DNA from: Comamonadaceae bacterium
GTDB lineage: Bacteria; Pseudomonadota; Gammaproteobacteria; Burkholderiales; Burkholderiaceae_C
DNA: 64,000 nt
Direction of reading: 5' to 3'
Assembly: GCA_031414805.1 (NCBI GenBank)
Contig: JANOQJ010000088.1
Location: 12,882-76,881, forward strand
Shown here: in pieces, positions 2,418 to 50,830 of the stretch
Numbering within the stretch: position 1 is the first letter of the stretch
Layout of the letters: the number at the start of each line of letters is the position of its first letter
The notes under the pieces: model-generated
Database searches by the model: none
What the model was told of the DNA's origin: nothing
Seen by the model: the letters and a program-made list of their open reading frames with translations, nothing else
Made by a program: the position numbers and the translations under genes

Positions 2418-3221
2418 TCATGGGCGCGCCAGCGCCGTCATCTTCATGGCCAGCGCCACGTATTCATCAACAGGCACCTCTTCGGCACGACGTTGCGCAT
2501 CAAAAGGCTCGTCGTGCTGATGTTCTTCCAGCCAGCGCCCCAGCGTGTGCCGCAAAATTTTGCGGCGCTGGCTGAACGCCACCTGCACGATTTCCGAGAG
2601 CAGTTTGACATCGACGTCGGGTGGCTGCGCCAGCGGCACCATGCGCACCACCGAGCTGTCGACACGGGGCGGTGGGTTGAATGATTCGGGGGGCACATGC
2701 AAAACGTGCTCCATGGTGTAGCGCCATTGCAGCATCACACTCAGGCGGCTGTAATCCGCCGTGGCAGGCCTGGCCAGCATGCGGTCGACCACCTCTTTTT
2801 GCAGCATGAAGTGCTGGTCTTGTATGTGCTGTGCGAATGGCAAGAGATGAAACAGGATGGGCGTGGAGATGTTGTAGGGCAAGTTGCCCACCACACGCAG
2901 TGAGCCACGATTTGCTACTGAATTAATAGCTGTTTCAGCAGTATTTATAAGGGCAAAGTCCACTTTTAATACATCGGCCTCAATCACCGTCAACTGCGGG
3001 TGCTCACGCAGCCGCACCGCGAGGTCGCGGTCCAGCTCGATCACGGTGAGATGGCCCAGTCGCTCAACCAGGGGCTGCGTCAGTGCGGCCAGACCCGGGC
3101 CGATTTCGACCATGTGCTGGCCCGGCTCTGGCGCAATGGCGGAAACGATGGCCTCAATGATCCCGCCGTCGGCCAGAAAGTGCTGACCAAAGCGCTTGCG
3201 GGCAACGTGCTTCATGCTCAC
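2418..3221 (-). CDS. rsmA: 16S rRNA (adenine1518/1519-N6)-dimethyltransferase
   Basis: [19 protein letters not shown] and [17 protein letters not shown] motifs. ATGA overlap with the surA stop. Contains repeat copy 2914..2970 in frame. Confidence 0.93.
2914..2970 (+). repeat. structured ~60-nt repeat, copy inside rsmA (forward orientation)
   Basis: gctactgaattaatagctgtttcagcagtatttataagggc plus tail. Confidence 0.8.
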
Positions 3222-4597
3222 TCAGGTTGCGCGCGCAACTCCACAAACGCCCGGCCACGCACCTCTTGCGCCCAGGTCAGGTACGCCTCTTCCAGCTTTT
3301 TCTCTTTGACCATGCCGCGCGCCAGCTCGCGTTGCTCGCGCTGGCCCAGGGTGGTCTGGCGGCGCTCTTGCACCTCGATCAGGTGCACGCCGAAGCGTGA
3401 AACCAGCGGCTCGGCCATTTGCCCGGGGTTCAGGTTGTTCATCACGTCTTCAAACTCCGGCACAAACTGCCCGGGGTTGGCCCAGCCCAAGTCGCCGCCA
3501 CTGGCGGCACTGCCGTCTTGCGAATGCTCGCGTGCGAGCGCCGCAAAGTCGGCTTGGCCAGCCTGGATGCGACGTTTGTAGTCTGCCAACCGGGACACCG
3601 CGGCGGACTGCGACAGCTGGGCACCGGTGCGCAACAGGATGTGCCGCGCACGGGTTTGCGTGACGCTCATGCCCGGCATGCCGGCCTGGCGCTTTTCAAG
3701 CACTTTAAGGATGTGAAAACCGGCACCCGTTCGCACCAGCGGGCTGACGCCGCCTTCGCGCAGATCAGCCGTGGCCTGCACAAAAGCCGGGGGGTAGCGC
3801 TCGGCACTGCGCAGGCCAAACTGACCTCCGCTGGCGGCATTCGTACCCTCGGACGTTTCGCGCGCCAGCTTGGCGAAGTCTTCACCGGCCAATGCACGCG
3901 CCAGCACCTGCTGGGCGCGCGCCTGGATGGCGGCGACCTGGGCTGACGTGGCGTTTTCGGGCACCACCAGCAGCACATGCGCCAGGTTGATTTCCATGTT
4001 TTGCAAGTCGGTGCTGCCCTCCTGCTCGCGCAGGAATTGGTCCACCTCGACGTCGCTGACGCGGATGCGGGCATCGACCTCTCGCTCGCGCAAGCGCGTC
4101 AGCAAAATCTGGTTGCGCAACTCGTCGCGAAACTGGCCCACGCTCACACCGTCGGCCAGCAGTTGACGGCGCATTTGCGGCACCTCCAGCTGGTTTTGCC
4201 GCGCCACGGTGCGTTCGGCCTCGTCTACGGTGTTGTCGTCGGCCCGCACACCCGAGTCGCGCGCCAACTGCAGCTGGGCGCGCTCACCAATGAGCCGCTC
4301 CAGCACCTGCGCGGTCAACTCCGCGCGCGGCGGCAGGGGGGAGCCTTGTGCGGTCAGCTGCTGCTCGACCCGCACCAAACGGGCTCGCACCTCGTTATTG
4401 GTAATCGGCTCGGAATTGACCACGGCCACGATGAAGTCCGCCGAGCGCGGCGTGGTGTCCACGGCGCGCTGGATCGTGACGGCGGGGGCACGGCTGCCAC
4501 CCAGTTGGGGGGTGGAGCGCAACTGGGCCTGCGCGGGCCACGGCGCAAGCGCCGCATAAACCAAAGACACAGCAACGACGAAATTAAGCTTTTGCAT
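3218..4597 (-). CDS. surA: periplasmic chaperone / peptidyl-prolyl isomerase SurA
   Basis: Signal peptide and two parvulin-type PPIase segments (HILL..., GGDLGW...). Sits in the conserved position between lptD and rsmA. Confidence 0.9.
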
Positions 4598-4624
4598 GGG
4601 GCGTGCCTGTATCAGAAAAAGTGA

Positions 4625-7122: not shown

Positions 7123-8208
7123 ATGACCCACCCGACCGAACCGACCACTGTCTCCAACCCCATTGTGTGGGCCGATCACGAGCGACAAACGGCGTTCAAC
7201 AAATGGCTGGCCACGGTCAGCGGCCCACAGGCATTGATGCCCGAAAGCCTACGCAGTGCCTCGGCCGACGCCAGTTTTCGCCGTTACTTTCGCATTGATC
7301 AGGCCGCAGGCGGCAGCCGCATCATCATGGACGCGCCGCCCACGCTGGAAGACTGCAAACCGTTTGTCAATGTGGCTGCGTTGATGCGCCAGGCCGGCTT
7401 GCAAGTGCCAGACGTCCTGGCGTGGGACGAAACCCAGGGCTTTATGCTGCTCAGTGATGTGGGTCAGCACACCATGATGCAGGTGCTGAAGCCAGACGAG
7501 CCGCAGGCCAATCAGGCTTTGTTTCTGCAAGCGGCCGATGAGTTGGTGCGCTGGCAACTGGCTTCCCAGCCCGGCGTGCTGCCCGTCTACGACGCGCCGC
7601 TGCTGACCCGCGAACTGGCCTTGTTTCCCGACTGGTACATCGCGCGCCACCGCGCGGTGGTGCTGAGCGACAAGCACCAAGCCATTCTGGACAAAGCGTT
7701 GCAACTGATTGTTCAGCGAAATCTCGCCGCCGCCAGCGTCTATGTGCACCGCGATTTCATGCCCCGGAATTTGATGATGCCCACGGGAGACAACACCCGC
7801 CTGTCGATCCTGGACTTTCAGGACGCTGTCTATGGCCCCATCACCTACGACATTGCCAGCCTGATGCGCGACGCCTTCATTAGCTGGGACGAGGAATTCG
7901 TGCTGGACATCACGGTGCGCTACTGGCAGCGCGCCCAGAAAGCCGGGCTGCCGGTCGACGCGGACTTTGGCGACTTTTACCGCGCGGTGGAGTGGATGGG
8001 CTTGCAGCGCCATTTGAAAATAGCGGGCATTTTTGCCCGCATCACCCTGCGGGACGGCAAACCCAAATACCTGGCTGACACGCCACGCTTCATCGGCTAC
8101 ATCCGCGCCACCTGTAACCGCTACCGCGAGCTGGGGCCGCTGCTGCAGGTGATTGACCACATCGAAGGCACGCAGGCTGCCACGGGTTACGCGTTTGGGC
8201 GCGTGTAG
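7123..8208 (+). CDS. aminoglycoside-phosphotransferase-fold kinase (AmgK-like MurNAc/GlcNAc anomeric kinase candidate)
   Basis: APH-fold catalytic motif VHRDFMPRNLM and ILDFQDA. The divergent arrangement with lptD is typical for amgK. No murU follows it here. Confidence 0.6.
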   Translation: MTHPTEPTTVSNPIVWADHERQTAFNKWLATVSGPQALMPESLRSASADASFRRYFRIDQAAGGSRIIMDAPPTLEDCKPFVNVAALMRQAGLQVPDVLAWDETQGFMLLSDVGQHTMMQVLKPDEPQANQALFLQAADELVRWQLASQPGVLPVYDAPLLTRELALFPDWYIARHRAVVLSDKHQAILDKALQLIVQRNLAAASVYVHRDFMPRNLMMPTGDNTRLSILDFQDAVYGPITYDIASLMRDAFISWDEEFVLDITVRYWQRAQKAGLPVDADFGDFYRAVEWMGLQRHLKIAGIFARITLRDGKPKYLADTPRFIGYIRATCNRYRELGPLLQVIDHIEGTQAATGYAFGRV

Positions 8209-8220
8209 TGCTGTTTGTGG

Positions 8221-8277
8221 CACTTTTAGGCCTCTAGCCCTTGTAAATACTGCTCAAGCAGCTATTGAATTAATAGC
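8221..8277 (-). repeat. structured ~60-nt repeat, intergenic copy (reverse orientation)
   Basis: cacttttaggcctctagcccttgtaaatactgctcaagcagctattgaattaatagc. Confidence 0.9.
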
Positions 8278-8292
8278 AAAATAAAACAAACC

Positions 8293-9027
8293 ATGCCCCG
8301 TTTTCACTGCCCCACCCCGCTGCATACGGGCTTGAGTCTGGATCTGCCGCCCAGCGCCGCTCGGCACGTGCAGGTGCTGCGACTGCAGCCGGGCAGCGCC
8401 ATCACCCTGTTCAACGGCGAGGGCGGTGAATACGCCGCGCAGGTTGAACTCATGGGGCGAAGCGACGTGCGCGTGACGGTGGGCGCGCATGACCCGGTGG
8501 CGCGTGAAGCAGCCCGCGCCGTCCACCTGTTGGTGGGTATGCCCACCAACGAGCGCATGGACTGGCTGGTGGAAAAAGCCACCGAACTGGGTGCCGCCAG
8601 CATCACGCCCCTGGTAACCGAGCGCACCGTGCTCAAGCTGTCCGGCGAGCGGGCCGATAAAAAACGCGCCCACTGGCAGGCTATTGCGGTGGCGGCCTGC
8701 GAGCAGTGCGGGCGCAACCGGGTGCCGGTGGTGCATGCGGTGCGGGCTTTTGGCGCGGAAATAACGACAGGTTTGGCTGCGACCACCCCGCAGCGTTGGG
8801 TCCTCAGCCTGAGCCCGCAGGCGCAAAGCCTTCATGGCTTGCTCACGGCGGCTGCGCCACCGGCTGTCACCCTGCTGTCCGGGCCCGAAGGCGGCTTGAG
8901 CGCAGCCGAGGAGGCCCAGGCCCTGGCGCAGGGCTATGCTGCGCTGTCGCTGGGTCAGCGCACACTGCGCGCTGAAACCGCACCGCTGGCTGCCTTGGCT
9001 GCGATTGACTTGTTACTCCTGAATTAA
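8293..9027 (+). CDS. rsmE: 16S rRNA (uracil1498-N3)-methyltransferase
   Basis: MPRFHCP start, and LVGMPTNERMDWLVEKATELG and LSGPEGGLS motifs. The stop codon lies inside repeat copy 9014..9077. Confidence 0.88.
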   Translation: MPRFHCPTPLHTGLSLDLPPSAARHVQVLRLQPGSAITLFNGEGGEYAAQVELMGRSDVRVTVGAHDPVAREAARAVHLLVGMPTNERMDWLVEKATELGAASITPLVTERTVLKLSGERADKKRAHWQAIAVAACEQCGRNRVPVVHAVRAFGAEITTGLAATTPQRWVLSLSPQAQSLHGLLTAAAPPAVTLLSGPEGGLSAAEEAQALAQGYAALSLGQRTLRAETAPLAALAAIDLLLLN

Positions 9028-9077
9028 TAGCTGCTTGAGCAGTATTTACAAGGGCTGGAGCCCGATTTGACATAAAA
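9014..9077 (+). repeat. structured ~60-nt repeat, spans the rsmE stop codon
   Basis: tactcctgaattaatagctgcttgagcagtatttacaagggctggagcccgatttgacataaaa. Confidence 0.9.
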
Positions 9078-9088
9078 AGAACCCCACC

Positions 9089-10295: not shown

Positions 10296-10763
10296 ATGGG
10301 ATTATTGGATTCGGTTTTAGGCGCAGTCGCGGGACAAATGGGTGGGCAACAAAATCAGGCGGCGGCTGGTGGGCTGGGTGGCATTTTGAGCATGGTGGCC
10401 AACAACCCACAGATGCTGCAGGTCATCACCGGCATGCTGGGTAACGACGGCCAGCAAGGTGGCCTGGGCGGCTTGATGGACAAATTCCAGCAGGCTGGCA
10501 TGGGCGACGTGATGGGCTCCTGGGTGGGCGGTGGCCAGAATCAAGCCATCAATGGCGACCAGCTCAGCCAGGTGCTGGGTGGCGATGCGCTCAGCAGCAT
10601 TGCCGAACGACTGGGCATGTCGCAAGGCGACGCGGCGGGCCAACTGTCGCAAATTCTGCCGGGGCTGATTGACCAGCTCACACCGCAAGGTCAGGCACCT
10701 GCCGGTGGCCTGGGTAACAGCGGTGATTTGATGGGAATGCTGGGTGGTTTGCTATCTAAATAA
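10296..10763 (+). CDS. YidB-family (DUF937) glycine-rich protein
   Basis: MGLLDSVLGAV start, G/Q-rich middle and GMLGGLL end. The stop lies inside repeat copy 10751..10812. Confidence 0.7.
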   Translation: MGLLDSVLGAVAGQMGGQQNQAAAGGLGGILSMVANNPQMLQVITGMLGNDGQQGGLGGLMDKFQQAGMGDVMGSWVGGGQNQAINGDQLSQVLGGDALSSIAERLGMSQGDAAGQLSQILPGLIDQLTPQGQAPAGGLGNSGDLMGMLGGLLSK

Positions 10764-10812
10764 TAGCTGTTTGAGCAGTATTGATAAGGGCTGACGGCTC
10801 TTATCATCAAAA
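10751..10812 (+). repeat. structured ~60-nt repeat, spans the yidB-like stop codon
   Basis: gctatctaaataatagctgtttgagcagtattgataagggctgacggctcttatcatcaaaa. Confidence 0.88.
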
Positions 10813-15077: not shown

Positions 15078-16457
15078 CTAGCCGACCAGAAAGCTCTTAA
15101 TCAGTAAACCCGCCACCGCGCAGCCCGCAATCACGGGAATCACCCCAGCCTTTTGGCTGAACAGCATCCACGCAGCGGCCAGCATGACGACCACTGCCGC
15201 CCAGTCGATTTGGGCATAAAAAGGGCCTTCAGCCCTTTTATTGATTGCTACAGCAGCTATAAAAAACAGAGCAAGATGTGCCATCACACCTACCACCGCC
15301 GCGCTGATGGCTGTCAATGGTGCGGTGAACCCCAGCTTGCCGTGGGTCGATTCCACCAGGGGACCGCCCGCCAGGATGAAGATGAATGAGGGTAAGAAGG
15401 TGAACCAGGTCACGACCACCGCGGCCATTGCGGCCCCCATAAACAGCATGTCGGGCCCTAGCACCTGCCGGGCCCAGCCCCCCAAAAAGCCGACAAAAGC
15501 CACCACCATGATCAGCGGGCCCGGCGTGGTCTCGCCCAGGGCCAAACCATCGATCATTTGCGCCGCCGTCAGCCACTGGAAATGTTCCACCGCGCCCTGG
15601 TACACATAGGGCAGCACTGCATAAGCACCGCCAAAGGTCAGCAGCGCAGCTTTGGTAAAAAACCAGGCCATTTGCGTCACCGTGCCCTGCCAGCCAAAGC
15701 TCAGCAGCAAAGCCGCCATGGGCAGCAACCACAGCGCCGCACCGACCACCAGCACGGTGGCCAGGCGGCTTCGGGAAAAGCGTGCGTGGATGGGCGTGGG
15801 CGTGCCATCGTCGATCGCTGCGGGTGGGTGCGCCGCATCCGTCTCAGCTTTCCCCGCATGACCGCCCGGTCCCGCAAATTGCCCCGGTGCCCAGCGCGAG
15901 CCCAGCCAACCAACCACCGTGGCCACCAGCACGACCGCTGGAAACGGCACGTTCAAGAACGCAATTGCTATAAAACTCATAGCTGCCAGAGCAGTTAATA
16001 CAGGGGCCTTTGTCGGTTTCTTCAATACTTTGCTGCCGATTCGCCAAACCGCGTGCACCACAATGGCCGCCACCGCAGGCTTGATGCCGTACAGCAGCGC
16101 GGCCACCCACGGCACCTGGCCAAACACCACATACACCCAGCTCAGCGCTATCAAAATGAACAGCGACGGCAGCACAAACAGCACGCCCGCCGCCACGCCG
16201 CCCCAGGTGCGGTGCATGAGCCAGCCGATGTAGGTGGCCAGTTGCTGCGCCTCCGGTCCGGGCAGCAACATGCAGTAATTCAGCGCGTGCAGAAAACGCC
16301 TGTCGGAAATCCACCGGCGCTCATCCACCAGCACACGGTGCATCAGCGCGATCTGCCCGGCCGGGCCGCCAAAGCTGATAAAGCCCAGCTTGAACCAGAA
16401 GGCCAGCGCTTGGGTGAATGAAATGGTGTTTGGGTTGTGGTCGGTGGTGGCGATCAT
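15078..16457 (-). CDS. chrA: chromate efflux transporter ChrA
   Basis: Two CHR halves (FGGPAGQIALMH, TFGGAYAVLPY). Start taken at ATG 16457; upstream in-frame ATGs exist. Carries two degenerate repeat copies in frame. Confidence 0.88.
   Translation of the reverse strand: MIATTDHNPNTISFTQALAFWFKLGFISFGGPAGQIALMHRVLVDERRWISDRRFLHALNYCMLLPGPEAQQLATYIGWLMHRTWGGVAAGVLFVLPSLFILIALSWVYVVFGQVPWVAALLYGIKPAVAAIVVHAVWRIGSKVLKKPTKAPVLTALAAMSFIAIAFLNVPFPAVVLVATVVGWLGSRWAPGQFAGPGGHAGKAETDAAHPPAAIDDGTPTPIHARFSRSRLATVLVVGAALWLLPMAALLLSFGWQGTVTQMAWFFTKAALLTFGGAYAVLPYVYQGAVEHFQWLTAAQMIDGLALGETTPGPLIMVVAFVGFLGGWARQVLGPDMLFMGAAMAAVVVTWFTFLPSFIFILAGGPLVESTHGKLGFTAPLTAISAAVVGVMAHLALFFIAAVAINKRAEGPFYAQIDWAAVVVMLAAAWMLFSQKAGVIPVIAGCAVAGLLIKSFLVG
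15231..15267 (-). repeat. degenerate repeat copy inside chrA (reverse orientation)
   Basis: agcccttttattgattgctacagcagctataaaaaac has about 27/38 ungapped matches to the reverse consensus. Its reading frame is the same as the dprA copy. Confidence 0.5.
15967..16007 (+). repeat. degenerate repeat copy inside chrA (forward orientation)
   Basis: gctataaaactcatagctgccagagcagttaatacaggggc has 31/41 ungapped matches to the consensus. Confidence 0.65.
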
Positions 16458-16522
16458 TTGGAGTTTCTCTTTTCTTGCGCGTCGTCTTGCCGCTTCAGCC
16501 TTGCGCCGCCACTCGGCGGTGT

Positions 16523-17455
16523 TCATGGCTGCTTCCAGTTGTGCGCCTCGTCTTGTGCCAGCACCTTGTCGCAGCACCAGGCGTAGAGCGCGTCATACAG
16601 CGGTAGGGCAGCTTGCAGCATGGTGTGGTCATCGGCGTGCAGTCGCGACAAACCCAGCGAAAACGCCAGCAAACCAGCGGATTGCGCTGCCAAGTCCAGC
16701 CGGTCGGTATCCGCCCCGCGCACGATGCGGGCCAGCAAATCCAGCGCGGGGTTTTTAAGTTCAAACCCGCCCAACAATGCATCAAAGCTGCACAACTCAC
16801 CCACATGCGAGACCGGCGCGCCGGGAATGTCGTAGGCCACCGCGTTCAAGCGCCTGGCTTCTTCAAACACCTGGGGTGTGGGCACGTAAAAAAATTCGGC
16901 GCGCGGGTCGATGAAGCGGCTAATTAACCAGGGGCAGGCAATGCGATCAATCTTGGGTCGCTCGCGTGTGATCCAATGCGAGGCGTGCTCGCCCGTGACG
17001 CCCCAATCGGGTCGCTTGCGCAGGGTGAGCGCGGGGTTCCCCCGCCACTGCTTCGTGTTCTGCGGTGTGTCCTCGCCGTCTTGCCCGCCTTCGATGCCAC
17101 CTTCGAGCGCGCAGGCATTCCAACCCGCTGCACGCAACTGCGCCACCGCATCGGCGCTGACGTTATGGCCATAGACGCAATACACCACCACCTCGCGCGG
17201 TGGCTGGCTGGCCGCCCATGCGGCCACGTCTTCGGGCTTGCAGCGCTGCGCGGTGGCGATGAGGTGGGGGCTTGAAGCAAACTTTTCTTCGCGCCGCACA
17301 TCGAGCACCAGCGGCGCGTCAGGTCTCCCCAAACGAAGGTTCAACGCCTGTGGGGAAGTGGAAAAAGCACGGTTGAACGCAGAGGGATTTGCAGATGCAA
17401 TTGAGGTGTCCACGGATAACTCCAAGTGAGAATTACCAGCGCTTGGACGGGACAC
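16523..17455 (-). CDS. rhodanese domain fused to a ChrB C-terminal (chromate resistance) domain
   Basis: N-terminal rhodanese-like segment (VLDVRREEKF...YCVYGHNVS). C-terminal ChrB-type motif RPKIDRIACPWLISRFIDP. Located directly upstream of chrA. Confidence 0.75.
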   Translation of the reverse strand: MSRPSAGNSHLELSVDTSIASANPSAFNRAFSTSPQALNLRLGRPDAPLVLDVRREEKFASSPHLIATAQRCKPEDVAAWAASQPPREVVVYCVYGHNVSADAVAQLRAAGWNACALEGGIEGGQDGEDTPQNTKQWRGNPALTLRKRPDWGVTGEHASHWITRERPKIDRIACPWLISRFIDPRAEFFYVPTPQVFEEARRLNAVAYDIPGAPVSHVGELCSFDALLGGFELKNPALDLLARIVRGADTDRLDLAAQSAGLLAFSLGLSRLHADDHTMLQAALPLYDALYAWCCDKVLAQDEAHNWKQP

Positions 17456-17556
17456 CGTCTATCTGTGAAGCAGGAGTTTCAAGATTCGGGAGGCTGCTTT
17501 CCCGATAGCTCAGATGATAGCTTGCGTTTTGATTCGACTCGCCAACTCACTCCGGG

Positions 17557-18893: not shown

Positions 18894-20768
18894 TCAAAGC
18901 TTCAACGCGTCCAATCCCTTGATGAAGTTTCGCTTGGCTTTGTATTCTGCCCGCAGGCGTGCCAGCCACTGACCGTGGTCTGGCTGCTTCATGAGAGACG
19001 CTACTTCCGCAACCAGCTCCAACACGTCGGTGTAGGGCGTGCTGGCTTGCGGCATGCGCGCTGCGAAAACGCGGTGCAGCAGCGCCAAAGCCTCTGCCGG
19101 TTTTGTGTCGCGAATCTTTTTGGCAAGCGTGTAGAGCAATTTATCGTCACACGCATGCGGGGGCTGCACCAGCGCCAGCGCCTCATCGGTTTTGCTTTCG
19201 TGCAGCAACCAGGTCGCTCGCGTGGTGACGGATCGCCCTGTGTTTGTGGGTCTTGAAAAGTACAGGCGTGACGGCTTGGATTTCGCGTCCTGCACTTCAC
19301 GTGCCGCCACCCACTCGTACAGGGATGCGCGGTAAGTCTGGCGGTCATGCCCCGCCGCCACAGCAGCTTTCAGCACGGCGTCAAACTTCTCGGGGCTGGG
19401 GTTGTGCTCCAGGCGGGTGCGATGAATGGCCAAGGCTTCCGCGTCCCAGCCATCGCGCTCGTAGCAGCGCAGCAAGTCGTCCTGGATGCGCCAGTCTTGC
19501 GGAAAGAGTTTGCGCGCCTTGAGCGCGTAGTCCAAGGCCTCGCGCATTTTGTTCATCGACTCACACCAGGCGATCAGCTCGCTGTGTTCGTGTGCCTCCT
19601 GCAGGCTGGCAGACAGCGCTTGCAGCACGGCTGCGTCATCGCCTTGACGCTTCAGGTCTTCGATGTAGCGTCGGCGCAGCTGCGATCGCTCGGCATCCCA
19701 TCCCCCAGAAACACCCGTGAAAATCAGGCTACGTGCCTTGCGCTTGCCCTGGGCATCAAACGAGGTTTGCTCAGACATTGACTGAACACAAGCCAACCAA
19801 TCGGCTTGCACCCGCTCGCTGTAACGTTTTTGCACCAATGGCCCTGCAACTTCGAGCACGTCGGACTCGCGCCACAAGCCCCAGGGGTCGGCCTCCATCA
19901 ACGCAAACCATTCGTCCAGCCATTGCGCAGGCGGCGGCGCGGCCTTCAGTGTCTTGAGCAGCAAGGCTTGCACGCCATACATCAGGTCGCCAATCATGCC
20001 GCCCGAATCGTCAGCGTGTTCGCCCACCTTGTACAGCTTGCGCAGCGCATAGGCGCAGGCTGCGCGGCCTTGTTCGGGCGAAGCGTGTGCAATTCTCTCA
20101 AGCAGGGGATAGACCGCCTCGGCACGTCTGGCGTAGGCGTTGGATTCAGCCCAGCCATAAAAACTGCGCGACTTCTCCAACATGGTGGCAATGGCGTCTT
20201 TCCAGCCACCCGGTTCCTGCACCGCCACGCTCTGCGCATGCCACGACTTCAACACCGCCATCAGGTCGCGGTCTGTCTCGGCCAACTGCCACAGCTTCTC
20301 AGCCAAACTGGTGGCGTCCTGGGCAAACACAAAGGCCTTGAGTGCATCCCGCTTGCTGGCGACGGTGGCCTGGCGTTTTTGGGACGCTATTGATTTAATA
20401 GCTGCTTGAGCAGTATTTGCAAGGGCTGGAGCGGCATTTCCTTCTAATTTACAGCGCCAGAAGAGGCCTGCGGCCACCATGTGCTTGCAAAACGCGCCTT
20501 CTTGCGCATGCGGGCAGGTACATGCCGTGTGCAGGCCTACGTCTTCAAAATACAACTCGGTGCTGTAGGTCTGCGTGCCTTTGACCGTGAACGTTGCATT
20601 GCCTCCGCCATCACGCGGCATGCTGACCTTGCCTGCGGAAAAATAGGCATGCCCGCGTTCAAATATGTCTTCGCCCGCCATCTCACGCAGCGCATCGTCT
20701 GACAACTTTTCGGCCCAGTTGTCAGTAATCTCTGCCCAACGTGCCGCGAAGTCTTTTTTTACTGCCAT
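18894..20768 (-). CDS. SWIM zinc-finger protein with a long helical-repeat C-terminal region
   Basis: CxCx(n)CxH signature [14 protein letters not shown] near residue 90. The remainder is alpha-helical repeat-like. Repeat copy 20386..20445 is in frame just after the SWIM motif. Confidence 0.75.
20386..20445 (+). repeat. structured ~60-nt repeat, copy inside the SWIM gene
   Basis: gctattgatttaatagctgcttgagcagtatttgcaagggctggagcggcatttcc. Confidence 0.9.
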
Positions 20769-23589: not shown

Positions 23590-23638
23590 TGCTACGGCCC
23601 GAAGAAGTATCAATAGTGTGTGGCTCCGAGGAATAGTC

Positions 23639-23702
23639 GCTACTAAATCAATAGCTGCTTGAGCAGTATTCGCAAGGGCTAGTGGCCGATTTGGCACTAA
23701 AA
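23639..23702 (+). repeat. structured ~60-nt repeat, intergenic
   Basis: gctactaaatcaatagctgcttgagcagtattcgcaagggctagtggccgatttggcactaaaa. Confidence 0.9.
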
Positions 23703-23708
23703 CGGCAT

Positions 23709-25707: not shown

Positions 25708-25720
25708 GTCGTATTCAAGC

Positions 25721-25784: not shown

Positions 25785-25791
25785 TGAGCCA

Positions 25792-29969: not shown

Positions 29970-30126
29970 AGAGGATCGATCATGCCGACTCTTTACGTAA
30001 CGGAGCGCCCAGTGGTTTCAAATGGTTCGACATCAAAGGGGCAAGCACAGCTTCCTGAAGGGCGGCAGAGCATTCCGTGCGGCAACATCCGCAGCACCGT
30101 TCCCCGCGGAAACAGGCAGTTTATAG

Positions 30127-30182
30127 AGAAAACAGCCATCAGCCCTTATAGATACTGCTCAAGCAGCTATTATAAACGTAGC
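30127..30182 (-). repeat. structured ~60-nt repeat, intergenic (reverse orientation)
   Basis: aaaacagccatcagcccttatagatactgctcaagcagctattataaacgtagc. Confidence 0.88.
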
Positions 30183-30199
30183 AAAAAGCCTCAGAACTA

Positions 30200-42116: not shown

Positions 42117-43583
42117 TCACGCCACGCGGCAGATTTTCAGCATGTTCGTCCCGCCCGGCGCGCCCATGGGCTCGCCGCAGGTGATGGCATACACATCACC
42201 ACTGCTGACGATGCCGCGCTTTTTTAGATGGCCTTCGGCTTCCAGCAGCGCGGTGTCGCGGTCGACGCTGGTGTCCATCAGCAGCGGGCGCACGTTGCGG
42301 TACAGCGCCATTTTTCGCTGCGTGGTCACGCGCGGCGTGAGGGCGTAAATGGGCACATGAATGCGGTGGCGGCTCATCCACAAGGCGGTCGAGCCGCTGT
42401 CGGTCAGCGCCACGATGGCTTTGGCACCCAGGTGGTGGGCGGTGAACAAAGCGCCCATGGCAATCGACTGGTCGATGCGGTTGAAGGCCATGTCGGTGAA
42501 GTCGGCGTCCAGCTTCACGTCTTCGGCTTTTTCGGCTTCCAGACAGATGTTGGCCATCTCGATCACGGTTTCCAGCGGGTATTTGCCCGCAGCCGTCTCG
42601 GCGCTGAGCATGACGGCGTCGGTACCGTCCAGCACGGCGTTGGCCACGTCGCTCACCTCGGCGCGGGTGGGCACCGGGTTGGTGATCATCGACTCCATCA
42701 TTTGCGTGGCGGTGATCACCACCTTATCGCTCTCGCGGGCCATGCGGATCATGCGTTTTTGCAGCGCGGGTACCGCCGCGTTGCCCACTTCCACCGCCAG
42801 ATCACCGCGCGCCACCATGATGCCGTCGCTGGCGTCCAGAATGGCTTGCAGGTGCGGAATGGCCTCGGCGCGCTCGATTTTGGCAATCATTCCCGGCTTG
42901 TGCCGCCACTCGGCCCCGGCCACGTTGCACAGCTGACGGGCCATTTCCATGTCGGTGGCGTTTTTGGGGAAGCTCACCGCCACGTAATCAGCCTGAAAGC
43001 TCATGGCGGTTCGAATGTCTTCCATGTCTTTGGCTGTCAACGCCGGGGCGGTGAGGCCACCGCCTTGTTTGTTGATGCCTTTGTTATTCGACAACTCGCC
43101 GCCCAGTTTGACGGTGGTGTGCACCTCTTCGCCATGCACCGCGTCCACAGTGAGCACGATCAAACCGTCGTTGAGCAGCAGCAGATCGCCGGCTTTTACA
43201 TCGCGCGGCAGCTCTTTGTAGTCCAGCCCCACGCCGTTGATGTCGCCTGGCTCGGTACGCGAGGCATCCAGCACAAACTGGGCACCAGGCTCCAGCATCA
43301 CCTTGCCTTCTGAAAACTTGCCCACGCGTATTTTTGGCCCTTGCAGGTCGGCCATGATGGCCACCTCGCGCCCCGCACGGGTGGCAGCGGCGCGCACCAG
43401 AGCGGCTCGGTCAATGTGGTCTTGCGCCTTGCCATGGCTGAAGTTCAGCCGCACCACGTTCACACCGGCCTCAATGATTTTTTGAAGCAACGCGGGGTCG
43501 CTGGAGGCGGGGCCCAGGGTGGCGACGATTTTGGTGGCGCGGCGAGGGGCCGGGCTGGGGGTGCTTTTTTGGCGGTTTGGCAA
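42117..43583 (-). CDS. pyk: pyruvate kinase
   Basis: TKIVATLGPAS, NFSHG, MVARGDLAVE and ITATQMLESM-like motifs. Confidence 0.95.
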   Translation of the reverse strand: MPNRQKSTPSPAPRRATKIVATLGPASSDPALLQKIIEAGVNVVRLNFSHGKAQDHIDRAALVRAAATRAGREVAIMADLQGPKIRVGKFSEGKVMLEPGAQFVLDASRTEPGDINGVGLDYKELPRDVKAGDLLLLNDGLIVLTVDAVHGEEVHTTVKLGGELSNNKGINKQGGGLTAPALTAKDMEDIRTAMSFQADYVAVSFPKNATDMEMARQLCNVAGAEWRHKPGMIAKIERAEAIPHLQAILDASDGIMVARGDLAVEVGNAAVPALQKRMIRMARESDKVVITATQMMESMITNPVPTRAEVSDVANAVLDGTDAVMLSAETAAGKYPLETVIEMANICLEAEKAEDVKLDADFTDMAFNRIDQSIAMGALFTAHHLGAKAIVALTDSGSTALWMSRHRIHVPIYALTPRVTTQRKMALYRNVRPLLMDTSVDRDTALLEAEGHLKKRGIVSSGDVYAITCGEPMGAPGGTNMLKICRVA

Positions 43584-43656
43584 GGCTGTCTCCGTTCGGT
43601 TGAGCCTATATTCTTACCGCACGGGGTTACCAATTGGGTACAGGTTTGAATTGGTT

Positions 43657-43720
43657 GCTATTAGTTATATAGCTGGTTGAGCAGTATTTAAAAGGGCTAG
43701 AAGGCTATTTCACTCATAAA
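43657..43720 (+). repeat. structured ~60-nt repeat, pyk-pgk intergenic
   Basis: gctattagttatatagctggttgagcagtatttaaaagggctagaaggctatttcactcataaa. Confidence 0.88.
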
Positions 43721-43730
43721 CAATGCACCC

Positions 43731-44933
43731 TTAGCTGGACGAAGCAACGGCCCGTTTTTGCAAAATCTCGAACGCAGGCAGTGTTTTGCCCTCCAGCACC
43801 TCCAGAAAAGCACCGCCGCCGGTAGAGATGTAGTCCACCTCTTTTTCGATGCCGTATTTGGCAATGGCCGCCAGCGTGTCGCCGCCGCCAGCAATGCTGA
43901 AGGCGTTCGACGCGGCAATCGCGCGCGCAAGGGTCTCGGTGCCCCCGGCAAAGGCGTCGAACTCGAACACGCCCACCGGGCCGTTCCACACAATCGTGCC
44001 GGCCTTCTGCAGTTGCGTGGCCAGGCGGGCGGCGGTTTGCGGGCCGATGTCCAGAATCAAATCATCGGGCTCTACGTCGGTGGCGGCTTTGGTGGTGGCC
44101 ACCGCGTCGGCAGCAAAGGTTTTGGCTGTGACCACGTCGGTGGGAATGGGCACCTCGGCACCGCGTGCGCGCATCGCATCCATCACGGCTTTGGCGTCGC
44201 CCACCAAATCGGCTTCGGCCAGGCTCTTGCCAATGGGCAAACCAGCGGCCAGCAAGAAGGTGTTGGCAATGCCGCCGCCCACAATCAGTTGATCCACCTT
44301 GCCCGCCAGGGCTTGCAAAATCGTCAATTTGCTGGACACCTTGGAACCGCCCACGATGGCCACCAGGGGACGCCTGGGCTTGGCCAGGGCCAGCGTGATG
44401 GCATCCATCTCGGCGGCCAGTAAAGGTCCAGCACAGGCCACAGCCGCAAACTGGGCAATGCCGTAGGTGGACGCTTCGGCGCGGTGGGCGGTTCCAAAGG
44501 CATCGTGTACAAAGATGTCGCACAGCGCAGCCATTTTTTGAGCCAGCGTGGCGCTGTTTTTCTTCTCGCCCACGTTCACACGGCAGTTTTCCAGCAGCAC
44601 CAATTGGCCCGGTTCCACAACCACGCCGTCCAACCAATCAGCCCGCAGCGGCACCGGGCGGCCAAGCAGTTCCGACAGGCGATCGGCCACGGGCTGCAGC
44701 GAGTCTTGCGGCTGAAACTGACCTTCAGTGGGCCGCCCCAGGTGCGACGTGACCATGACGGCAGCGCCCGCGTCCAGCGCCATCCGGATGCAGGGCAGCG
44801 AGGCCCGAATGCGCGTGTCTTCGGTGATATTTCCCGCGTCGTCTTGCGGCACGTTCAGGTCAGCACGAATAAAAACCCGTTTGCCAGCCACGAGGCCTTG
44901 GGCACAGAGATCGGAAAAGCGGATGACGTTCAT
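43731..44933 (-). CDS. pgk: phosphoglycerate kinase
   Basis: RADLNVP, SHLGRP, GGAKVSxK-type GGSKVSSK and GGGDT motifs. ATG 44933 (MNVIRF). Confidence 0.95.
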
Positions 44934-44968
44934 GGCGGTGTGCACGGGTTAAGTGAAACGATTGAGTT

Positions 44969-45031
44969 GCTATTAAAATAATAGCTGCTTGAGCATATTT
45001 TATAAGGGCTGATAGCCGTTTTGATACAAAA
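44969..45031 (+). repeat. structured ~60-nt repeat, pgk-azlD intergenic
   Basis: gctattaaaataatagctgcttgagcatattttataagggctgatagccgttttgatacaaaa. Confidence 0.88.
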
Positions 45032-45049
45032 CAGTTACGGGTCGGCCTG

Positions 45050-45385: not shown

Positions 45386-46125
45386 GGGGTCGCCCGGCTT
45401 TGCGCATCCCGCTCGGGCCAGCGGCCTTCCAGCCACACGCACAGCAACACCGCCACGGCAATGGCCACCACGATGTTCAGTTTCAGGGGCAATGCGTAGG
45501 CCGCCACCGCCGCCGCACCCGAAGCCGCCACCGCTACCACCCGCAGGCGCGTGGTGGCCAGCGAGCTCATCACGCCGAGCAGGCAGAGCACGCCAGCGAA
45601 ACCCAGGCCCCAGCGGGTGGGTATGAAATTGGCCAGCGCAATGCCCACGCCGCTGGCGAGCACCCAGCTGGCCCAGGTGCCAAAGCAGTGACCCGCGAGG
45701 AACGATTCTTGCGCCAGATGCTGCGCAGGCGTTTGCCCGGGCGTGGGAAAGCGCTGGGTGAACTGCACATACGTCATGTCAGTCGTGAGAAAGCCGTGGG
45801 TGAGGCGCTGGCGCAGCGGCAGGTGCATCAGGTAGTCGCGCAGGTGCAGGCTGAACACGGCAAACCGCAGGTTCACGCAGAACGCCGCACCCAAAATCAC
45901 CCACAGAGGCGCTGCGGCCACGATGAGCGGGATGGCGGCGAGCTGGGCGCTGCCAGCATAGACCAGCAGCGTCATGGCGACCGACTCGAACACACTCAAA
46001 CCCGACTTGACCATGGCCACGCCGGTCATGAGACCCCAGGCGGCAATGCCAGCTGCTTGCGGCAGCATGGTTTGCAAGCCGGTTTTGAATTCAGGGTGGG
46101 TGTAGTGCTTGCGCAGGAAAAACAT
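45382..46125 (-). CDS. azlC: AzlC-family branched-chain amino acid permease
   Basis: Polytopic membrane protein; the pairing with azlD supports the call. ATG 46125 (MFFLRK). Confidence 0.78.
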   Translation of the reverse strand: MFFLRKHYTHPEFKTGLQTMLPQAAGIAAWGLMTGVAMVKSGLSVFESVAMTLLVYAGSAQLAAIPLIVAAAPLWVILGAAFCVNLRFAVFSLHLRDYLMHLPLRQRLTHGFLTTDMTYVQFTQRFPTPGQTPAQHLAQESFLAGHCFGTWASWVLASGVGIALANFIPTRWGLGFAGVLCLLGVMSSLATTRLRVVAVAASGAAAVAAYALPLKLNIVVAIAVAVLLCVWLEGRWPERDAQSRATP

Positions 46126-46132
46126 GGTTTGG

Positions 46133-47125
46133 TCAGGACGGGTTGGGCGCAGGCGGGCCGCCAAACACCATACCGGGCTTCAATTCAAAGCCACGCAAAA
46201 AGTCAGCGACCGCCAGGCGCTTGCCGCCAGCGCGCTGCAGCTCGGTGATGCGCAGGGTACCGCTGCCGTCATGACCACAGACCACCCCAATGGCTTCGTC
46301 ATTTACATAAGAAATAGTGCCACAGACCTTGTCAATACTGCTCAAGCAGCTATCAATTTCGCAGTGCCAAAGCTTGATGACTTCGCCATTCAAGGTGGTA
46401 AACGCACCCGGAAACGGGTTGAAGGCGCGCACCTGGCGGGTCAGGCTGGCGGCATCTTGCTGCCAGTCCAGCGCGGCTTCGGCTTTTTCAATTTTGTGGG
46501 CGTAGCTGATGCCGGTTTCGGGTTGTTTGACCGGTTTCAGTGCGCCTTGACTTGCCAATTGCAGCGCTTGCACCATCAGCCGCCCACCCATCTGCGCCAG
46601 CGCATCGTGCAGGCTGCCGGTGGTGTCGGTGTCGGCAATGGGCAAGGCTTGCGTCAGCAGCATGTCGCCGGTGTCCAGGCCCGCGTCCATCTGCATGATG
46701 GTGATGCCCGTTTGCGTGTCGCCTGACTGCACGGCGCGGTGAATCGGTGCCGCGCCGCGCCAACGGGGCAGCAGGGAGGCATGAATATTGAAAGCGCCCA
46801 GACGTGGCGCGTCCAGCACCCATTGCGGCAGGATCAAGCCATAGGCGGCGACGACCATGGCGTCGGCCTGTGCCGCCAGGATAGCTTCGCGCGCAGCCTG
46901 CGCGTCGTCAGGAAACTTGCCGTCCAGACGAAGGCTGCGGGGCTGGGCCACCGGGATCTGGTGCGACTGGGCAAACTGCTTGACGGCAGACGCGTGTAGT
47001 TTCAATCCCCGTCCTGCGGGGCGATCCGGCTGGGTGAGCACCAGCGCAATCGAAAACCCGCTGGTATGCAGCTGCTGCAGGGCAATGCTTGCGAACTCGG
47101 GCGTGCCCGCGAAGATGATGCGCAC
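46133..47125 (-). CDS. fmt: methionyl-tRNA formyltransferase
   Basis: [26 protein letters not shown] motifs. Located downstream of def. Repeat copy 46324..46367 is in frame in the C-terminal domain. Confidence 0.93.
46324..46367 (-). repeat. repeat core inside fmt (reverse orientation)
   Basis: agaccttgtcaatactgctcaagcagctatcaatttcgcagtgc. Confidence 0.8.
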
Positions 47126-48368: not shown

Positions 48369-49601
48369 ATGCATTCAGCCACGCCAAACCCTAAATACCC
48401 ATCCTCGTTTCGCGCGGGCTGCACTGTAGCCGCATTGGCAAGCCTTGTGTTTGCTGTGAGCCCGTCAGGGGCGCAAAACCTGCCGATCTCGCCCTCCCAG
48501 CGGGCCACGGCCCAGCAAGTGGCACAAGCCGGTGTGCCGATTTCCGAGTTGGCGCCCAACGCGCCCGACAGCTACACCGTCAAACCGCGCGACACGCTGT
48601 GGGGCATTTCCCGACTTTTCCTGAAAAGCCCGTGGCGCTGGCCCGAGTTGTGGGGCATGAACCTGCAGGAAATCCGCAACCCGCACCGCATTTACCCCGG
48701 CCAGCAGTTGGTGCTGGACAAATTGAATGGCCGTGCCACCCTGCGCATGGGCACCGCCCGCACCGACGGCCCGCCGACGGACACCATTAAAGTTTCGCCG
48801 CGCACACGCATTCAGTCGCTGGCAGATTCCTCATTACCCACTCTGCAAAACAACCTGATCGAGCCCTACCTGAACGAGGCGCTGATTGTTGACGAATTGA
48901 CCTTGCAGCAAGCGCCACGCATCGTGGCGGCGCAAGACGAACGGGTTTTGCTCACACGCGGTGACCGGGCTTACGTGCGCAGCAGCACCGGTGTGCCGCT
49001 CACAGACGAAGTGGGCAAGCCGTTGGATTTCCGGGTGTTTCGCAATGCCACGCCGCTGAAGGATCCCGTCACCAATGTGGTGCTGGGTTATGAAGCGCAA
49101 TACTCTGGCAAGGCTTCGCTGATACGTGGCGAAAGCATTCAAGACGTACAAGGCGCTGACGGAAAAATACAGCCGACGCCGGTGCCCGCCACGATTGACA
49201 TCGTGGGTGCCAAGCAGGAAATGCGGATTGGAGACCGCTTGTTGCCGGAACCCGCACGCCAGCTGGTCAGCTACGTGCCGCGCGCACCGGACACCAAAAT
49301 TTCCGGCAGCATCGTGTCGGTGTATGGCGACGCCGTGACCAATGCTGCGCAAAGCCAGGTGGTGGTGATCAACCGTGGTGCGGCCGACGGCCTGGAAAGC
49401 GGTCATGTGCTGGTCATCCTGAAAGACGGGCAACGCATGGTGGACAAAACCGAGCAGGGCAAACTGACCGATATCAAGCTGCCGAACGAACGCAATGGCT
49501 TGATGATGGTGTTTCGGACGTTCGACAAACTGTCTTACGCCTTGATTCTGGAAATCACCGACGGCGTCAAAGTCGGCGATCGCATCGCCAGCCCGCGCTG
49601 A
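48369..49601 (+). CDS. LysM peptidoglycan-binding domain protein
   Basis: Signal peptide and LysM segment YTVKPRDTLWGISRLFL...IYPGQQLVL. ATG 48369 inside ORF 48333..49601. Located divergent from def-fmt. Confidence 0.8.
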   Translation: MHSATPNPKYPSSFRAGCTVAALASLVFAVSPSGAQNLPISPSQRATAQQVAQAGVPISELAPNAPDSYTVKPRDTLWGISRLFLKSPWRWPELWGMNLQEIRNPHRIYPGQQLVLDKLNGRATLRMGTARTDGPPTDTIKVSPRTRIQSLADSSLPTLQNNLIEPYLNEALIVDELTLQQAPRIVAAQDERVLLTRGDRAYVRSSTGVPLTDEVGKPLDFRVFRNATPLKDPVTNVVLGYEAQYSGKASLIRGESIQDVQGADGKIQPTPVPATIDIVGAKQEMRIGDRLLPEPARQLVSYVPRAPDTKISGSIVSVYGDAVTNAAQSQVVVINRGAADGLESGHVLVILKDGQRMVDKTEQGKLTDIKLPNERNGLMMVFRTFDKLSYALILEITDGVKVGDRIASPR

Positions 49602-49633
49602 ACGAAGTTTTACCTCTGACATCACAGCTGCCG

Positions 49634-50830
49634 GTGACCGCTTCGGTGTGGGACTCGGATGAACTGGCCGCCTGGTTGCGGCTGTTGCTGACACCGGGCA
49701 TCGGCAACACCAGTGCGCGCAGCCTGCTCAAGGCATTCGGCCCGCCGCAAGCTATTTTTGACCAGCCTGTCAGTGCTTTGCGCCAATGCGTCAGCGCGGC
49801 GCAGGCAGCTGCACTACACACCCCACCGCCCAGCCTGCCCGCGTTACTGCTGTCCACAACGCAGTGGCTAGCAGACTCGCAAGCGGAAGGCGCCAGCCCG
49901 CCACCTATTCGCCGCTTGCTCACGCTGGCCGACGCGAACTACCCCTCGGCACTGCTGGAAATGGACGACCCGCCATTGCTGTTGTACACGCTAGGAGCGG
50001 GCACCTTTGTCACCACGCTGCCAATGCGGGCCATCGCCGTGGTGGGTAGTCGCAACCCCACACCGCAGGGACTGGTGAATGCCCAGGCGTTTGGGAAAAG
50101 CCTTGCGCAAGCGGGCCTGACCGTGATTTCCGGTCTGGCACTCGGCATCGACGGGGCGGCACACGAAGGTGCGCTGCAGGGCGCGGCAGACGGCCAGTTG
50201 TCCACCGTTGCCGTGGTGGGCACCGGGCTGGACCGCGTCTACCCCAAACAGCACCTGGCGCTGGCGCGGCGCATTGCGCAGCAAGGTTTGCTGATCAGCG
50301 AGTATCCCTTGGGCACACCCCCCTTGCCTGCCAATTTCCCCAAGCGCAACCGCATCATTGCGGCGCTGAGTTCGGGCACGCTGGTGGTCGAAGCAGCGCT
50401 CAAATCAGGCTCATTGATCACGGCGCGTCAGGCACTGGAGCAAGGCAAAGAGGTGTTTGCGATTCCGGGCTCCATCCACACCACACAGGCGCGCGGTTGC
50501 CATTGGTTGATACGCCAGGGAGCCAAACTGGTGGAGTCGGCGCAGGACGTACTGGAAGAGCTTCGAATCCCCGCTCCGGCCTTAGACACTCCTGATTTAA
50601 TAGCTGCTCAAGCAATATTCACAAGGGCTGCAGCGTCAAATGAGTCTAAACCAGGACGATCGAACAGTCTGTTAAGCGATTTGGGTTATGACCCCATCAC
50701 CCTGGACGCCTTGATGAACCGCACGGGTCAGGACGCTGCGACGCTGCAAGCGCACCTGTTGGAGTTGGAACTGGAAGGCTTGGTGGCGCGCATGCCCGGC
50801 GGCCAGTTTCAGCGCATTGCGAGCGCCTGA
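49634..50830 (+). CDS. dprA: DNA-processing protein DprA (Smf)
   Basis: VVGSRNPT, SGLALGIDGAAH, NRIIAALS and GSLITA motifs, plus a C-terminal winged-helix segment. Repeat copy 50588..50636 is in frame in the interdomain linker. Confidence 0.9.
   Translation: MTASVWDSDELAAWLRLLLTPGIGNTSARSLLKAFGPPQAIFDQPVSALRQCVSAAQAAALHTPPPSLPALLLSTTQWLADSQAEGASPPPIRRLLTLADANYPSALLEMDDPPLLLYTLGAGTFVTTLPMRAIAVVGSRNPTPQGLVNAQAFGKSLAQAGLTVISGLALGIDGAAHEGALQGAADGQLSTVAVVGTGLDRVYPKQHLALARRIAQQGLLISEYPLGTPPLPANFPKRNRIIAALSSGTLVVEAALKSGSLITARQALEQGKEVFAIPGSIHTTQARGCHWLIRQGAKLVESAQDVLEELRIPAPALDTPDLIAAQAIFTRAAASNESKPGRSNSLLSDLGYDPITLDALMNRTGQDAATLQAHLLELELEGLVARMPGGQFQRIASA
50588..50636 (+). repeat. repeat copy inside dprA, central loop inverted
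   Basis: actcctgatttaatagctgctcaagcaatattcacaagggctgcagc. It shares the actcctga left arm with copy 9014. Confidence 0.8.

Follow-up and report, generated by a model that had tools for sequence, protein, structure and literature searches.

A 64,000-nucleotide stretch of DNA from a Comamonadaceae bacterium (contig JANOQJ010000088.1; hereafter the window), with a G+C content of 60.4%, carries one AT-rich repeat element of approximately 60-70 nt in 16 copies that are dispersed singly between and within genes. Inside genes the element is read predominantly in two alanine-rich frames, which account for 35 of the 44 intragenic copies (80%) found in the window and in related loci. These two favoured frames are one and the same frame met from both sides of a palindrome, in which GCT GCT and GCA GCT are read as Ala. 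Element-like stretches within genes extend over 20-23 codons, while the net change in length of the host protein is 0-14 aa. The preferred reading, to which about even confidence attaches, is of a repeat acting at the DNA level that is brought into genes by patch replacement or recoding, the protein subsequently acting as a filter.

Copies were detected by a direct-repeat search followed by an nhmmer model made from the copies themselves; 14 are strong (50-70 bits) and two are weak (26 and 22 bits). The consensus on the strand designated orientation A is TTGCTATTAATTTAATAGCTGCTTGAGCAGTATTTAcAAGGGCTggtGGCcgATTTggCtt.aAAA. Its conserved heart is the quasi-palindrome AATAGCTGCT-TGA-GCAGTATT, which may also be written ATAGCTGCT-TGA-GCAGTAT or ATAgCTGCT-TGA-GCAG-TAT, followed by AAGGGCT and ATTT. 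The 19-nt core ATAGCTGCTTGAGCAGTAT was matched 11 times in the window with no more than two mismatches, against 0.00 matches expected from shuffled sequences. A species-representative genome collection was scanned for the exact 21-mer AATAGCTGCTTGAGCAGTATT, yielding at least 77 loci; the 77 loci listed all derive from metagenome-assembled genomes (MAGs) of Comamonadaceae, Polaromonas or Rhizobacter. The closest relatives of the RsmA, Fmt and ChrA proteins of the window are likewise Comamonadaceae proteins, with named matches in Rhodoferax, Polaromonas and Variovorax, and the genome is Polaromonas/Rhodoferax-like. The nhmmer model recovered 203 copies from the 599 kb comprising the window and the 77 loci, and no match above 9.5 bits was obtained from the same 599 kb when reversed. 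The consensus had no match in a plasmid collection. In consensus sequences built from 48-82 copies, no inverted-repeat relation exists between the two ends (TTGCTATTAATT... and ...GATTTGGCTTAAAAA), and the flanks are unconserved; target-site duplications were not systematically searched for.

Forty-four of the 203 copies (approximately 22%) lie well inside genes. The antisense Ala frame holds 23 of these, and the initial annotation of the window, which described this frame as open in most intergenic copies, was correct, since the stop-free fraction (intergenic copies without a stop codon over 67 nt) is 0.62-0.72. The sense Ala frame, closed by TGA in the canonical element, holds 12 copies (stop-free fraction 0-0.06) and the sense LLEQ frame, closed by TAG, holds five (approximately 0). 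Two copies each occupy the sense Ser/Cys frame (0.25-0.31) and the antisense ILLKQL frame, closed by TAA (approximately 0.01). The antisense Tyr/Cys/Ser frame (YCSSSY), with a stop-free fraction of 0.18-0.33, is not used by any intragenic copy. The antisense Ala frame accounts for 14 of the 15 copies that carry the bait 21-mer, where the stop-free fractions predict 0.60 (P=0.005). Diverged copies lacking the bait fall in the two Ala frames in 21 of 29 cases against an expectation of one third (P=2e-5). The P values returned by the frame-census tests were 0.005, 2e-5 and 4e-10, and a stricter filter left 17 of 24 copies in the two Ala frames. The frame preference claimed for the window thus exceeds that attributable to stop-codon avoidance, and extends to related genomes.

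The antisense Ala frame is also slightly more open than column shuffling predicts in the strictly intergenic copies of the window and the 77 loci, being stop-free in 60 of 96 against 50.0 ± 3.8 (3 of 400 shuffles reach 60), while the remaining five frames match the shuffled expectation. This slight excess could arise from uncalled genes, subfamily structure or weak selection.

Within the window, all five peptides quoted in the initial annotation were located, with their strands, at the positions given in Table 1, where the two sense-read peptides appear as LIAAQAIFTRAA (dprA) and FIAAVAINKRAE (chrA). The antisense-read copies in rsmA, chrA and the gene for a SWIM-finger protein use a common frame, AAT ACT GCT CAA GCA GCT ATT, as had been proposed. 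The companion proposal, that the sense-read copies share a second frame, holds for dprA and chrA (ATA GCT GCT xxx GCA) and fails for a sixth intragenic copy that had been overlooked; this copy, in fmt (46303-46371), has a perfect core and is sense-read in the third, Ser/Cys, frame. The segment in question presumably lies in the C-terminal beta-barrel domain of the protein, judging from homology to E. coli Fmt. Spurious open reading frames (ORFs) of at least 150 codons do arise from the antisense frame (Table 1). The canonical element closes the sense Ala frame with GCT GCT TGA, and the TGA is substituted in every one of the intragenic copies read in that frame (CAA, GTA, TCA, CCA, ACA or CGA); in the window the change is to CAA in dprA and to GTA in chrA.

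The hosts are not pseudogenes. The rsmA, chrA, SWIM-finger, dprA and fmt genes are intact with full-length Pfam or domain matches, and alignments of rsmA, fmt and chrA show orthologue sequence conserved on either side of the copies. The suggestion that the element is tolerated as a helix-prone segment stands in so far as the Ala-rich parts are helical in AlphaFold2 models of RsmA and ChrA. The RsmA model has a helix at residues 89-100 within the copy segment. In the ChrA model (predicted local distance difference test score, pLDDT, 91) site 1, a weak copy (22 bits) lying on a native transmembrane helix, falls in transmembrane helix 152-168, and site 2 falls at the end of helix 378-404. The further claim, that the element is built as an inserted segment to be tolerated inside proteins, was not upheld: both frames are one palindrome frame, the canonical sense frame contains TGA, the YCSSSY frame goes unused, the fmt copy is read as Ser/Cys in a presumed beta-barrel domain, and few residues are added.

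Intragenic copies are no less complete than intergenic ones (median aligned length 60 nt), and in no host tested did the protein show the full gain of approximately 20-23 aa. At both chrA sites the length change is 0 among 120 orthologues. Site 1 shows no indel against distant homologues and lies on a conserved transmembrane helix, whereas at site 2 a helix end that is conserved, (S/N)LALFF(A/I), corresponds to the left half of the element, its right half lying in a loop that is variable among distant homologues. An ancient full insertion at site 2 (the second CHR domain is approximately 25 aa longer than the Pfam model) was rejected, the extra length residing in a generally variable loop. The copy in MutL lies on the ATPase motif EALAAINAIAATAITSRAGGQ with no indel relative to E. 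coli, and in alanine racemase (Alr) TLATKLIAVQAISTGSTVGYGS aligns to TLESKVICVRELPAGEPVGYGA, again without an indel. Fmt gains 2 aa, 24 element codons standing against 22 residues in the E. coli protein; among the Comamonadaceae orthologues shown, the element segment is of equal length, typically LW.CEIDSC.RP.DV.CGTILSVN. Gains of 3 aa in an asparagine-synthase-like (AsnB-like) enzyme, 4 aa in TruB, 3 to 7 aa in RsmA and 11 aa in RumA were determined, the RsmA value being relative to homologues in the PDB; among RsmA orthologues the loop varies from 9 to 52 aa. The DprA linker of element-poor Polaromonas is shorter by 2 aa (locus L083) or 12 aa (L084) and reads AALQA where the window has IAAQA. 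Residues shared with distant homologues are retained within element segments. No orthologue of the SWIM-finger gene was found in a metagenome scan or by tblastn against all fetched loci.

Within genes the element is evident in the DNA as well as in the peptide. The G+C content of third codon positions is 0.10-0.58 in element segments, compared with 0.63-0.82 elsewhere in the same genes. All 44 intragenic copies score 3.6-10 standard deviations above 5000 synonymous recodings of their own peptide, and no recoding reaches the observed score. Even the weak copy at chrA site 1 scores 6.4 standard deviations above its synonymous recodings, with 12 of 13 degenerate codons ending in A or T. At residues identical between orthologues, identical codons are used in 37 of 44 cases inside the segments and in 496 of 781 outside (P=0.005, one comparison per gene). 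An 18-nt stretch of fmt is identical in genomes whose Fmt proteins are approximately 70% identical, and GAAATTGATAGCTGCTTG is conserved there.

In two related MAGs, whose Fmt, DprA and RsmA proteins are 81-89% identical to those of the window, copies occupy matching sites both between and within genes, with orientation unchanged. The shared intragenic positions are in rsmA, fmt and dprA, and the shared intergenic positions are APH-rsmE, rsmE-MFS, azlD-pgk, pgk-pk and yajC-POR. Most RsmA orthologues of 73-89% identity contain a loop resembling TAQAAI. Presence/absence polymorphism was sought between syntenic genomes, and all copies were shared except the partial copy at the 3' end of a yidB-like gene. 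This gene takes its final four codons and stop (LLSK*) from the element's left arm in both the window and locus L080 (2336-2366); the L080 site retains the left arm only, approximately 29 nt of the right part being absent. The element is abundant in the window and in loci L078, L080 and L082 (approximately 60-61% G+C; 6-7 copies per approximately 20 kb), whereas the Polaromonas loci L083 and L084 (63-64% G+C) are almost free of copies over 21 kb each. In the latter two, fmt keeps GAA ATT GAT AGC TG(C/T), the element's left half written in codons that end in A or T, at an otherwise decayed site, and the dprA site has no match to the element. These comparisons suggest that the element family is old, and that intragenic copies stay near consensus in genomes rich in the family but decay in genomes poor in it.

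Intergenic copies lie mainly on the 3' sides of genes, occurring in 29 of 60 convergent, 68 of 236 tandem and 8 of 55 divergent regions (convergent against divergent, P=1e-4). Orientation relative to transcription is unbiased in tandem regions (31:37). RNAalifold analysis of 48 intergenic copies yielded only a 3-bp invariant hairpin of -2.6 kcal/mol without covariation, and Rfam scans, at the gathering threshold and at E≤10, placed no family on any copy. A promoter role was rejected, one of three scanned copies fitting a sigma-70 pattern (antisense), as was a terminator role, none of the three fitting the pattern; for both, counts were not above those of shuffled sequences and no orientation bias was seen. 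Conservation at the level of sequence, together with the palindromic core, fits a DNA-level motif, such as a protein-binding site or uptake-type signal, or a substrate for copying; the element fits a classic repetitive extragenic palindromic (REP) hairpin or a MITE (a miniature transposable element with inverted repeats) less well.

Under replacement or recoding followed by filtering at the protein, element sequence would enter genes through short-patch templated replacement, in which the many copies in the genome serve as donors for ectopic gene conversion, or through stepwise recoding under a DNA-level drive, or through both; simple transposition would not be the route. Selection at the protein level would then filter the outcomes. 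The antisense Ala frame would pass as the sole stop-free frame, encoding the helix-compatible xNTAQAAIxxIA, and its mirror, IAAxA(V/I)xTRA, would pass once the TGA of the loop had been replaced. Native Ala/Ile-rich helices and loose linkers would be the accepting sites. The peptides are rich in Ala, Ile and Thr, compatible with a helix and similar to common native segments, hence copies sit on helices and linkers. In lineages with an active family, intragenic copies may be held near consensus by homogenisation or by selection on the DNA; where the family is extinct, they may decay to ordinary GC-rich codons. Perfect cores of at least 21 nt and small indels favour copying, whereas copies over conserved motifs without any indel favour drive.

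Several points weigh against replacement or recoding as the source of the intragenic copies. It is deduced from end states, and no replacement event has been caught. A pure conversion model must explain away the TGA that a canonical donor brings to the sense frame. Comparable near-canonical antisense copies add 3-14 aa, so that some insertion is involved, and several of the length comparisons rest on distant PDB homologues in indel-prone loops. Matches to the consensus by codon position are nearly flat (third position 0.78 against 0.73 in controls, first position 0.71 against 0.79), and conversion and stepwise drive are therefore not separated. Genes were called with a purpose-made codon-usage model trained on long ORFs, which is crude. 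Finally, use of the canonical 21-mer as bait over-sampled canonical copies, for which reason bait and non-bait copies were tested separately.

An unlikely alternative is that the element is a DNA-level signal built in place by point mutation, in the manner of DNA uptake sequences, which accumulate through biased uptake and recombination, or a selected site for a dimeric DNA-binding protein, with genes accommodating whichever frames are acceptable. It would account for zero-indel copies on conserved motifs with A/T-ending codons that match the element, for the raised synonymous-site conservation within copies and for the holding of orthologous positions. Equally common orientations, enrichment downstream of genes and conservation of sequence rather than fold around a palindromic core are also in keeping with it. 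Hosts include dprA, mutL, uvrC and parC, the names other than dprA having been assigned by eye, and DNA uptake sequences (DUS) are reportedly enriched in the genome-maintenance genes of Neisseria. The known uptake sequences have cores of 9-12 nt (approximately 30 nt when extended), far short of the conserved span of 40-70 nt here. The many perfect cores of at least 21 nt and the filling of whole intergenic gaps point to copying rather than point mutation. Moreover, only approximately 22% of copies are intragenic although the genomes are mostly coding, and third codon positions resemble the element only marginally more than the first and second do. Frame bias and accumulation in place are both documented for uptake signal sequences (USS) and DUS (PMC2817400).

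Doubtful, and somewhat more so, is transposition into genes of a mobile miniature element resembling the Rickettsia palindromic elements (RPEs), which would have evolved an open helix-prone frame and whose insert of approximately 23 aa would be tolerated on protein surfaces. The openness of the antisense frame in 62-72% of intergenic copies, and in 60 of 96 against 50.0 ± 3.8 after shuffling, is in its favour, as is the concentration of canonical intragenic copies almost entirely in that frame. The loops of RsmA, RumA and TruB gain 4-14 aa, the RsmA segment is helical in the model, and in-frame repeat insertion is documented for RPEs and for enterobacterial repetitive intergenic consensus (ERIC) sequences (PMC10969869). 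A full gain of approximately 20-23 aa was nevertheless seen in no tested case, the change being 0 aa at four sites (two in chrA, MutL and Alr) and 2 aa in fmt, and residues of distant homologues persist within the segments. The consensus lacks terminal inverted repeats, the canonical sense frame contains TGA, and copies are syntenic rather than polymorphic between genomes whose marker proteins are 81-89% identical.

A bolder proposal, and an equally doubtful one, is that the element is a hitherto undescribed signal that acts at the DNA level in a single Comamonadaceae clade, whether as an uptake-type sequence of unusual length or as the site of an abundant dimeric DNA-binding protein. Drive or selection for it would then be strong enough to alter housekeeping genes at their synonymous and tolerant positions, conserved motifs in MutL, alanine racemase and ChrA among them, and the Ala-rich peptides would be its proteome-wide footprint. 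Chance landing in genes with survival of stop-free frames can hardly be the explanation, for although most canonical copies leave a single frame free of stops and the five or six copies of the window could not alone have told the pattern apart, the YCSSSY frame, stop-free in 18-33% of intergenic copies, is used by 0 of 44, 17 of 44 use the two frames that TGA or TAG closes in the canonical element, and canonical copies fall in one frame in 14 of 15 cases against 0.60 expected (P=0.005).

By class, the element stands between RPEs, the closest known system in outcome, and DNA uptake sequences, the closest in process. It resembles the latter more than the former, since it covers codons already present in the gene and adds no insert of full length. 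Compared with orthologues, RPEs appear as cleanly inserted segments tens of residues long. Here, by contrast, a stretch of approximately 60 nt covers native codons and alters protein length by a net 0-14 aa, and the full-length insertion that defines RPEs is missing. Synonymous sites are recoded, the canonical sense frame contains a stop codon, and most copies lie downstream of genes. The likeness to RPEs (Ogata et al. 2000, 2002, via PMC10969869), which are approximately 150 bp, lies in a dispersed palindromic repeat present in frame in intact genes and encoding a recurrent, fold-compatible peptide. The difference from uptake sequences is that conservation here extends over 40-70 nt with a core of 19-21 nt. 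To our knowledge, the motif is much longer than any known uptake sequence. Like the copies described here, USS keep orthologous positions between relatives. The USS of Pasteurellaceae and DUS of Neisseria (Findlay & Redfield 2009, PMC2817400) are similarly over-represented motifs in both orientations, whose coding-region copies occupy preferred frames at tolerant positions and make the encoded peptides commoner, with 34.5-65% of copies in genes as against about a fifth here.

REP sequences and REPINs, associated with RAYT transposases (PMC3116915, PMC2817692), resemble the element in high copy number, in extragenic copies mostly downstream of genes, in vertical inheritance with long persistence, and in a palindromic core. 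The element differs in lacking a stable G+C-rich stem-loop (only the three invariant pairs described above), in having no GTAG/CGTC tag in the consensus (ATAGC instead), in being AT-rich in a genome of 60% G+C, and in the absence of inverted doublets (REPINs) among the copies seen. Intragenic ERIC sequences and MITE-borne ORFs (Delihas 2007, cited in PMC10969869) are also small intergenic repeats with an open frame and occasional in-frame fusion; those, however, are rare insertions bounded by terminal inverted repeats, whereas here such repeats are absent, frame use is systematic (35 of 44) and native sequence is replaced in place. The beta-proteobacterial repeat element (BRE) family (Hot et al. 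2011, PMC3110155), comprising repeats of 75-91 bp and 69% G+C in tandem arrays, occurs in Polaromonas, Rhodoferax and other Comamonadaceae, usually between genes with some copies wholly within coding sequences. Identity of the element with BRE was rejected, as the element is AT-rich and present in single copies while BRE are GC-rich and tandem.

Bacterial intragenic repeats are usually put down either to insertions that are tolerated (RPE, ERIC) or to short signals for uptake. The element presents a third pattern, a long and mostly extragenic motif whose intragenic copies overwrite codons at near-constant length in two mirror-image frames. Should the pattern prove genome-wide, it would offer a tractable case of a DNA-level process shaping both protein sequence and codon choice, which in a bacterial family dominant in the environment would reach as far as the conserved motifs of housekeeping enzymes. 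It would also account for the spurious NTAQAAI ORFs and for odd AT-rich patches in annotation, and would provide a marker of lineage history, because copies keep their orthologous sites and decay in lineages that have lost the family.

Table 1. Positions of the element copies in the window, of orthologous copies in loci L078, L080 and L082, and of associated peptides and spurious ORFs.
Feature	Position	Strand	Score	Context	Orthologous copy
Copy in rsmA	2907-2973	+	53.5 bits	gene 2418-3221 (-); antisense-read, NTAQAAI frame; aa 83-105	
Intergenic copy	8215-8282	-	61.3 bits	between APH-like gene (7123-8208) and rsmE-like gene (8293-9027)	L080 4826-4880
Intergenic copy	9008-9078	+	69.7 bits	between rsmE-like and MFS genes; covers final ~20 nt and stop codon of upstream ORF	L080 4044-4112
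Copy at 3' end of yidB-like gene	10745-10812	+	58.8 bits	gene 10296-10763	
Copy in chrA (site 2)	15209-15279	-	50.6 bits	gene 15078-16577 (-); sense-read, IAAxA frame; peptide AHLALFFIAAVAINKRAEGPFYAQI	
Weak copy in chrA (site 1)	15965-16007	+	22 bits, E=5e-6	antisense-read; peptide APVLTALAAMSFIAI	
Copy in SWIM-finger gene	20381-20447	+	62 bits	perfect core; gene 18894-20768 (-); antisense-read; 23-residue peptide directly after zinc finger; best-scoring intragenic copy	
Intergenic copy	23634-23702	+	65.1 bits	upstream of histidine-kinase gene (23893-25707); falls in spurious 157-codon antisense ORF	
Weak intergenic copy	25719-25778	+	26.1 bits, E=2.6e-7	downstream of histidine-kinase gene	
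Intergenic copy	30119-30188	-	59.8 bits	between esterase gene (29085-29969, -) and ORF 30200-30874 (-)	
Intergenic copy	43650-43720	+	57.8 bits	between pyruvate kinase gene (42117-43583, -) and pgk (43731-44945, -)	L078 13617-13682
Intergenic copy	44963-45032	+	56.7 bits	between pgk and azlD	L078 12106-12174; L082 12137-12198
Copy in fmt	46303-46371	-	52.7 bits	perfect 19/19 core; gene 46133-47125 (-); sense-read, third frame	
Copy in dprA	50582-50650	+	52.2 bits	gene 49634-50830 (+); sense-read, IAAxA frame; in linker preceding winged-helix domain	L078 and L082
Intergenic copy	56772-56840	+	59.6 bits	fills gap from yajC to POR/DUF6537 gene (56837-60481, -)	L078 253-319
Intergenic copy	63192-63260	+	60.8 bits	between convergent genes 60615-63110 (+) and 63246-63965 (-)	
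12-residue peptide	2913-2948	-		rsmA	
12-residue peptide	20385-20420	-		SWIM-finger gene	
LTALAAMSFIA	15966-15998	-		chrA	
LIAAQAIFTRAA	50597-50632	+		dprA	
FIAAVAINKRAE	15228-15263	-		chrA	
NTAQAAI	8246	+			
NTAQAAI	46334	+			
NTAQAAI	9026	-			
NTAQAAI	23650	-			
Spurious ORF	23437-23907	-		at least 150 codons	
Spurious ORF	25438-25914	-		at least 150 codons	
Spurious ORF	46109-46726	+		205 aa with NTAQAAI; on strand opposite fmt copy	

The hosts identified in other loci were named by eye as ParC, TruB, UvrC, MutL, RumA, Alr, GlnRS, an asparagine-synthase-like enzyme and an ABC ATPase; matches in the PDB confirm TruB, RumA, MutL, Alr and the asparagine-synthase-like protein. Several proteins contain two element segments, often differing in orientation or frame, namely MutL of locus L075, the asparagine-synthase-like protein of L030, a 376-aa protein of L034, a 319-aa protein of L013 and ChrA of the window. 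This looks like more than would be expected from random scatter of approximately 44 copies over approximately 535 genes. The two chrA copies (aa 191-205 and 433-457) occupy equivalent sites of two homologous CHR domains, one antisense-read and the other sense-read, and each lies on or at the end of the corresponding helix.

The sole Rfam match was the chrB-b motif (RF03086, 46.7 bits), a cis-regulatory RNA unrelated to the element, at 17436-17505 on the reverse strand, at the 5' end of ORF 16523-17455. This ORF, presumably chrB, is the one directly upstream of chrA, and the motif suggests an ordinary chromate-resistance operon leader.

Directly after the dprA stop codon lie two GC-rich direct repeats of 61 nt (50822-50882 and 50906-50966), 84% identical and spaced at 84 nt, which end in a C-run/GAGGGGG hairpin. 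Tandem Repeats Finder made no call here. By description only, these repeats recall the GC-rich tandem BRE of Betaproteobacteria.

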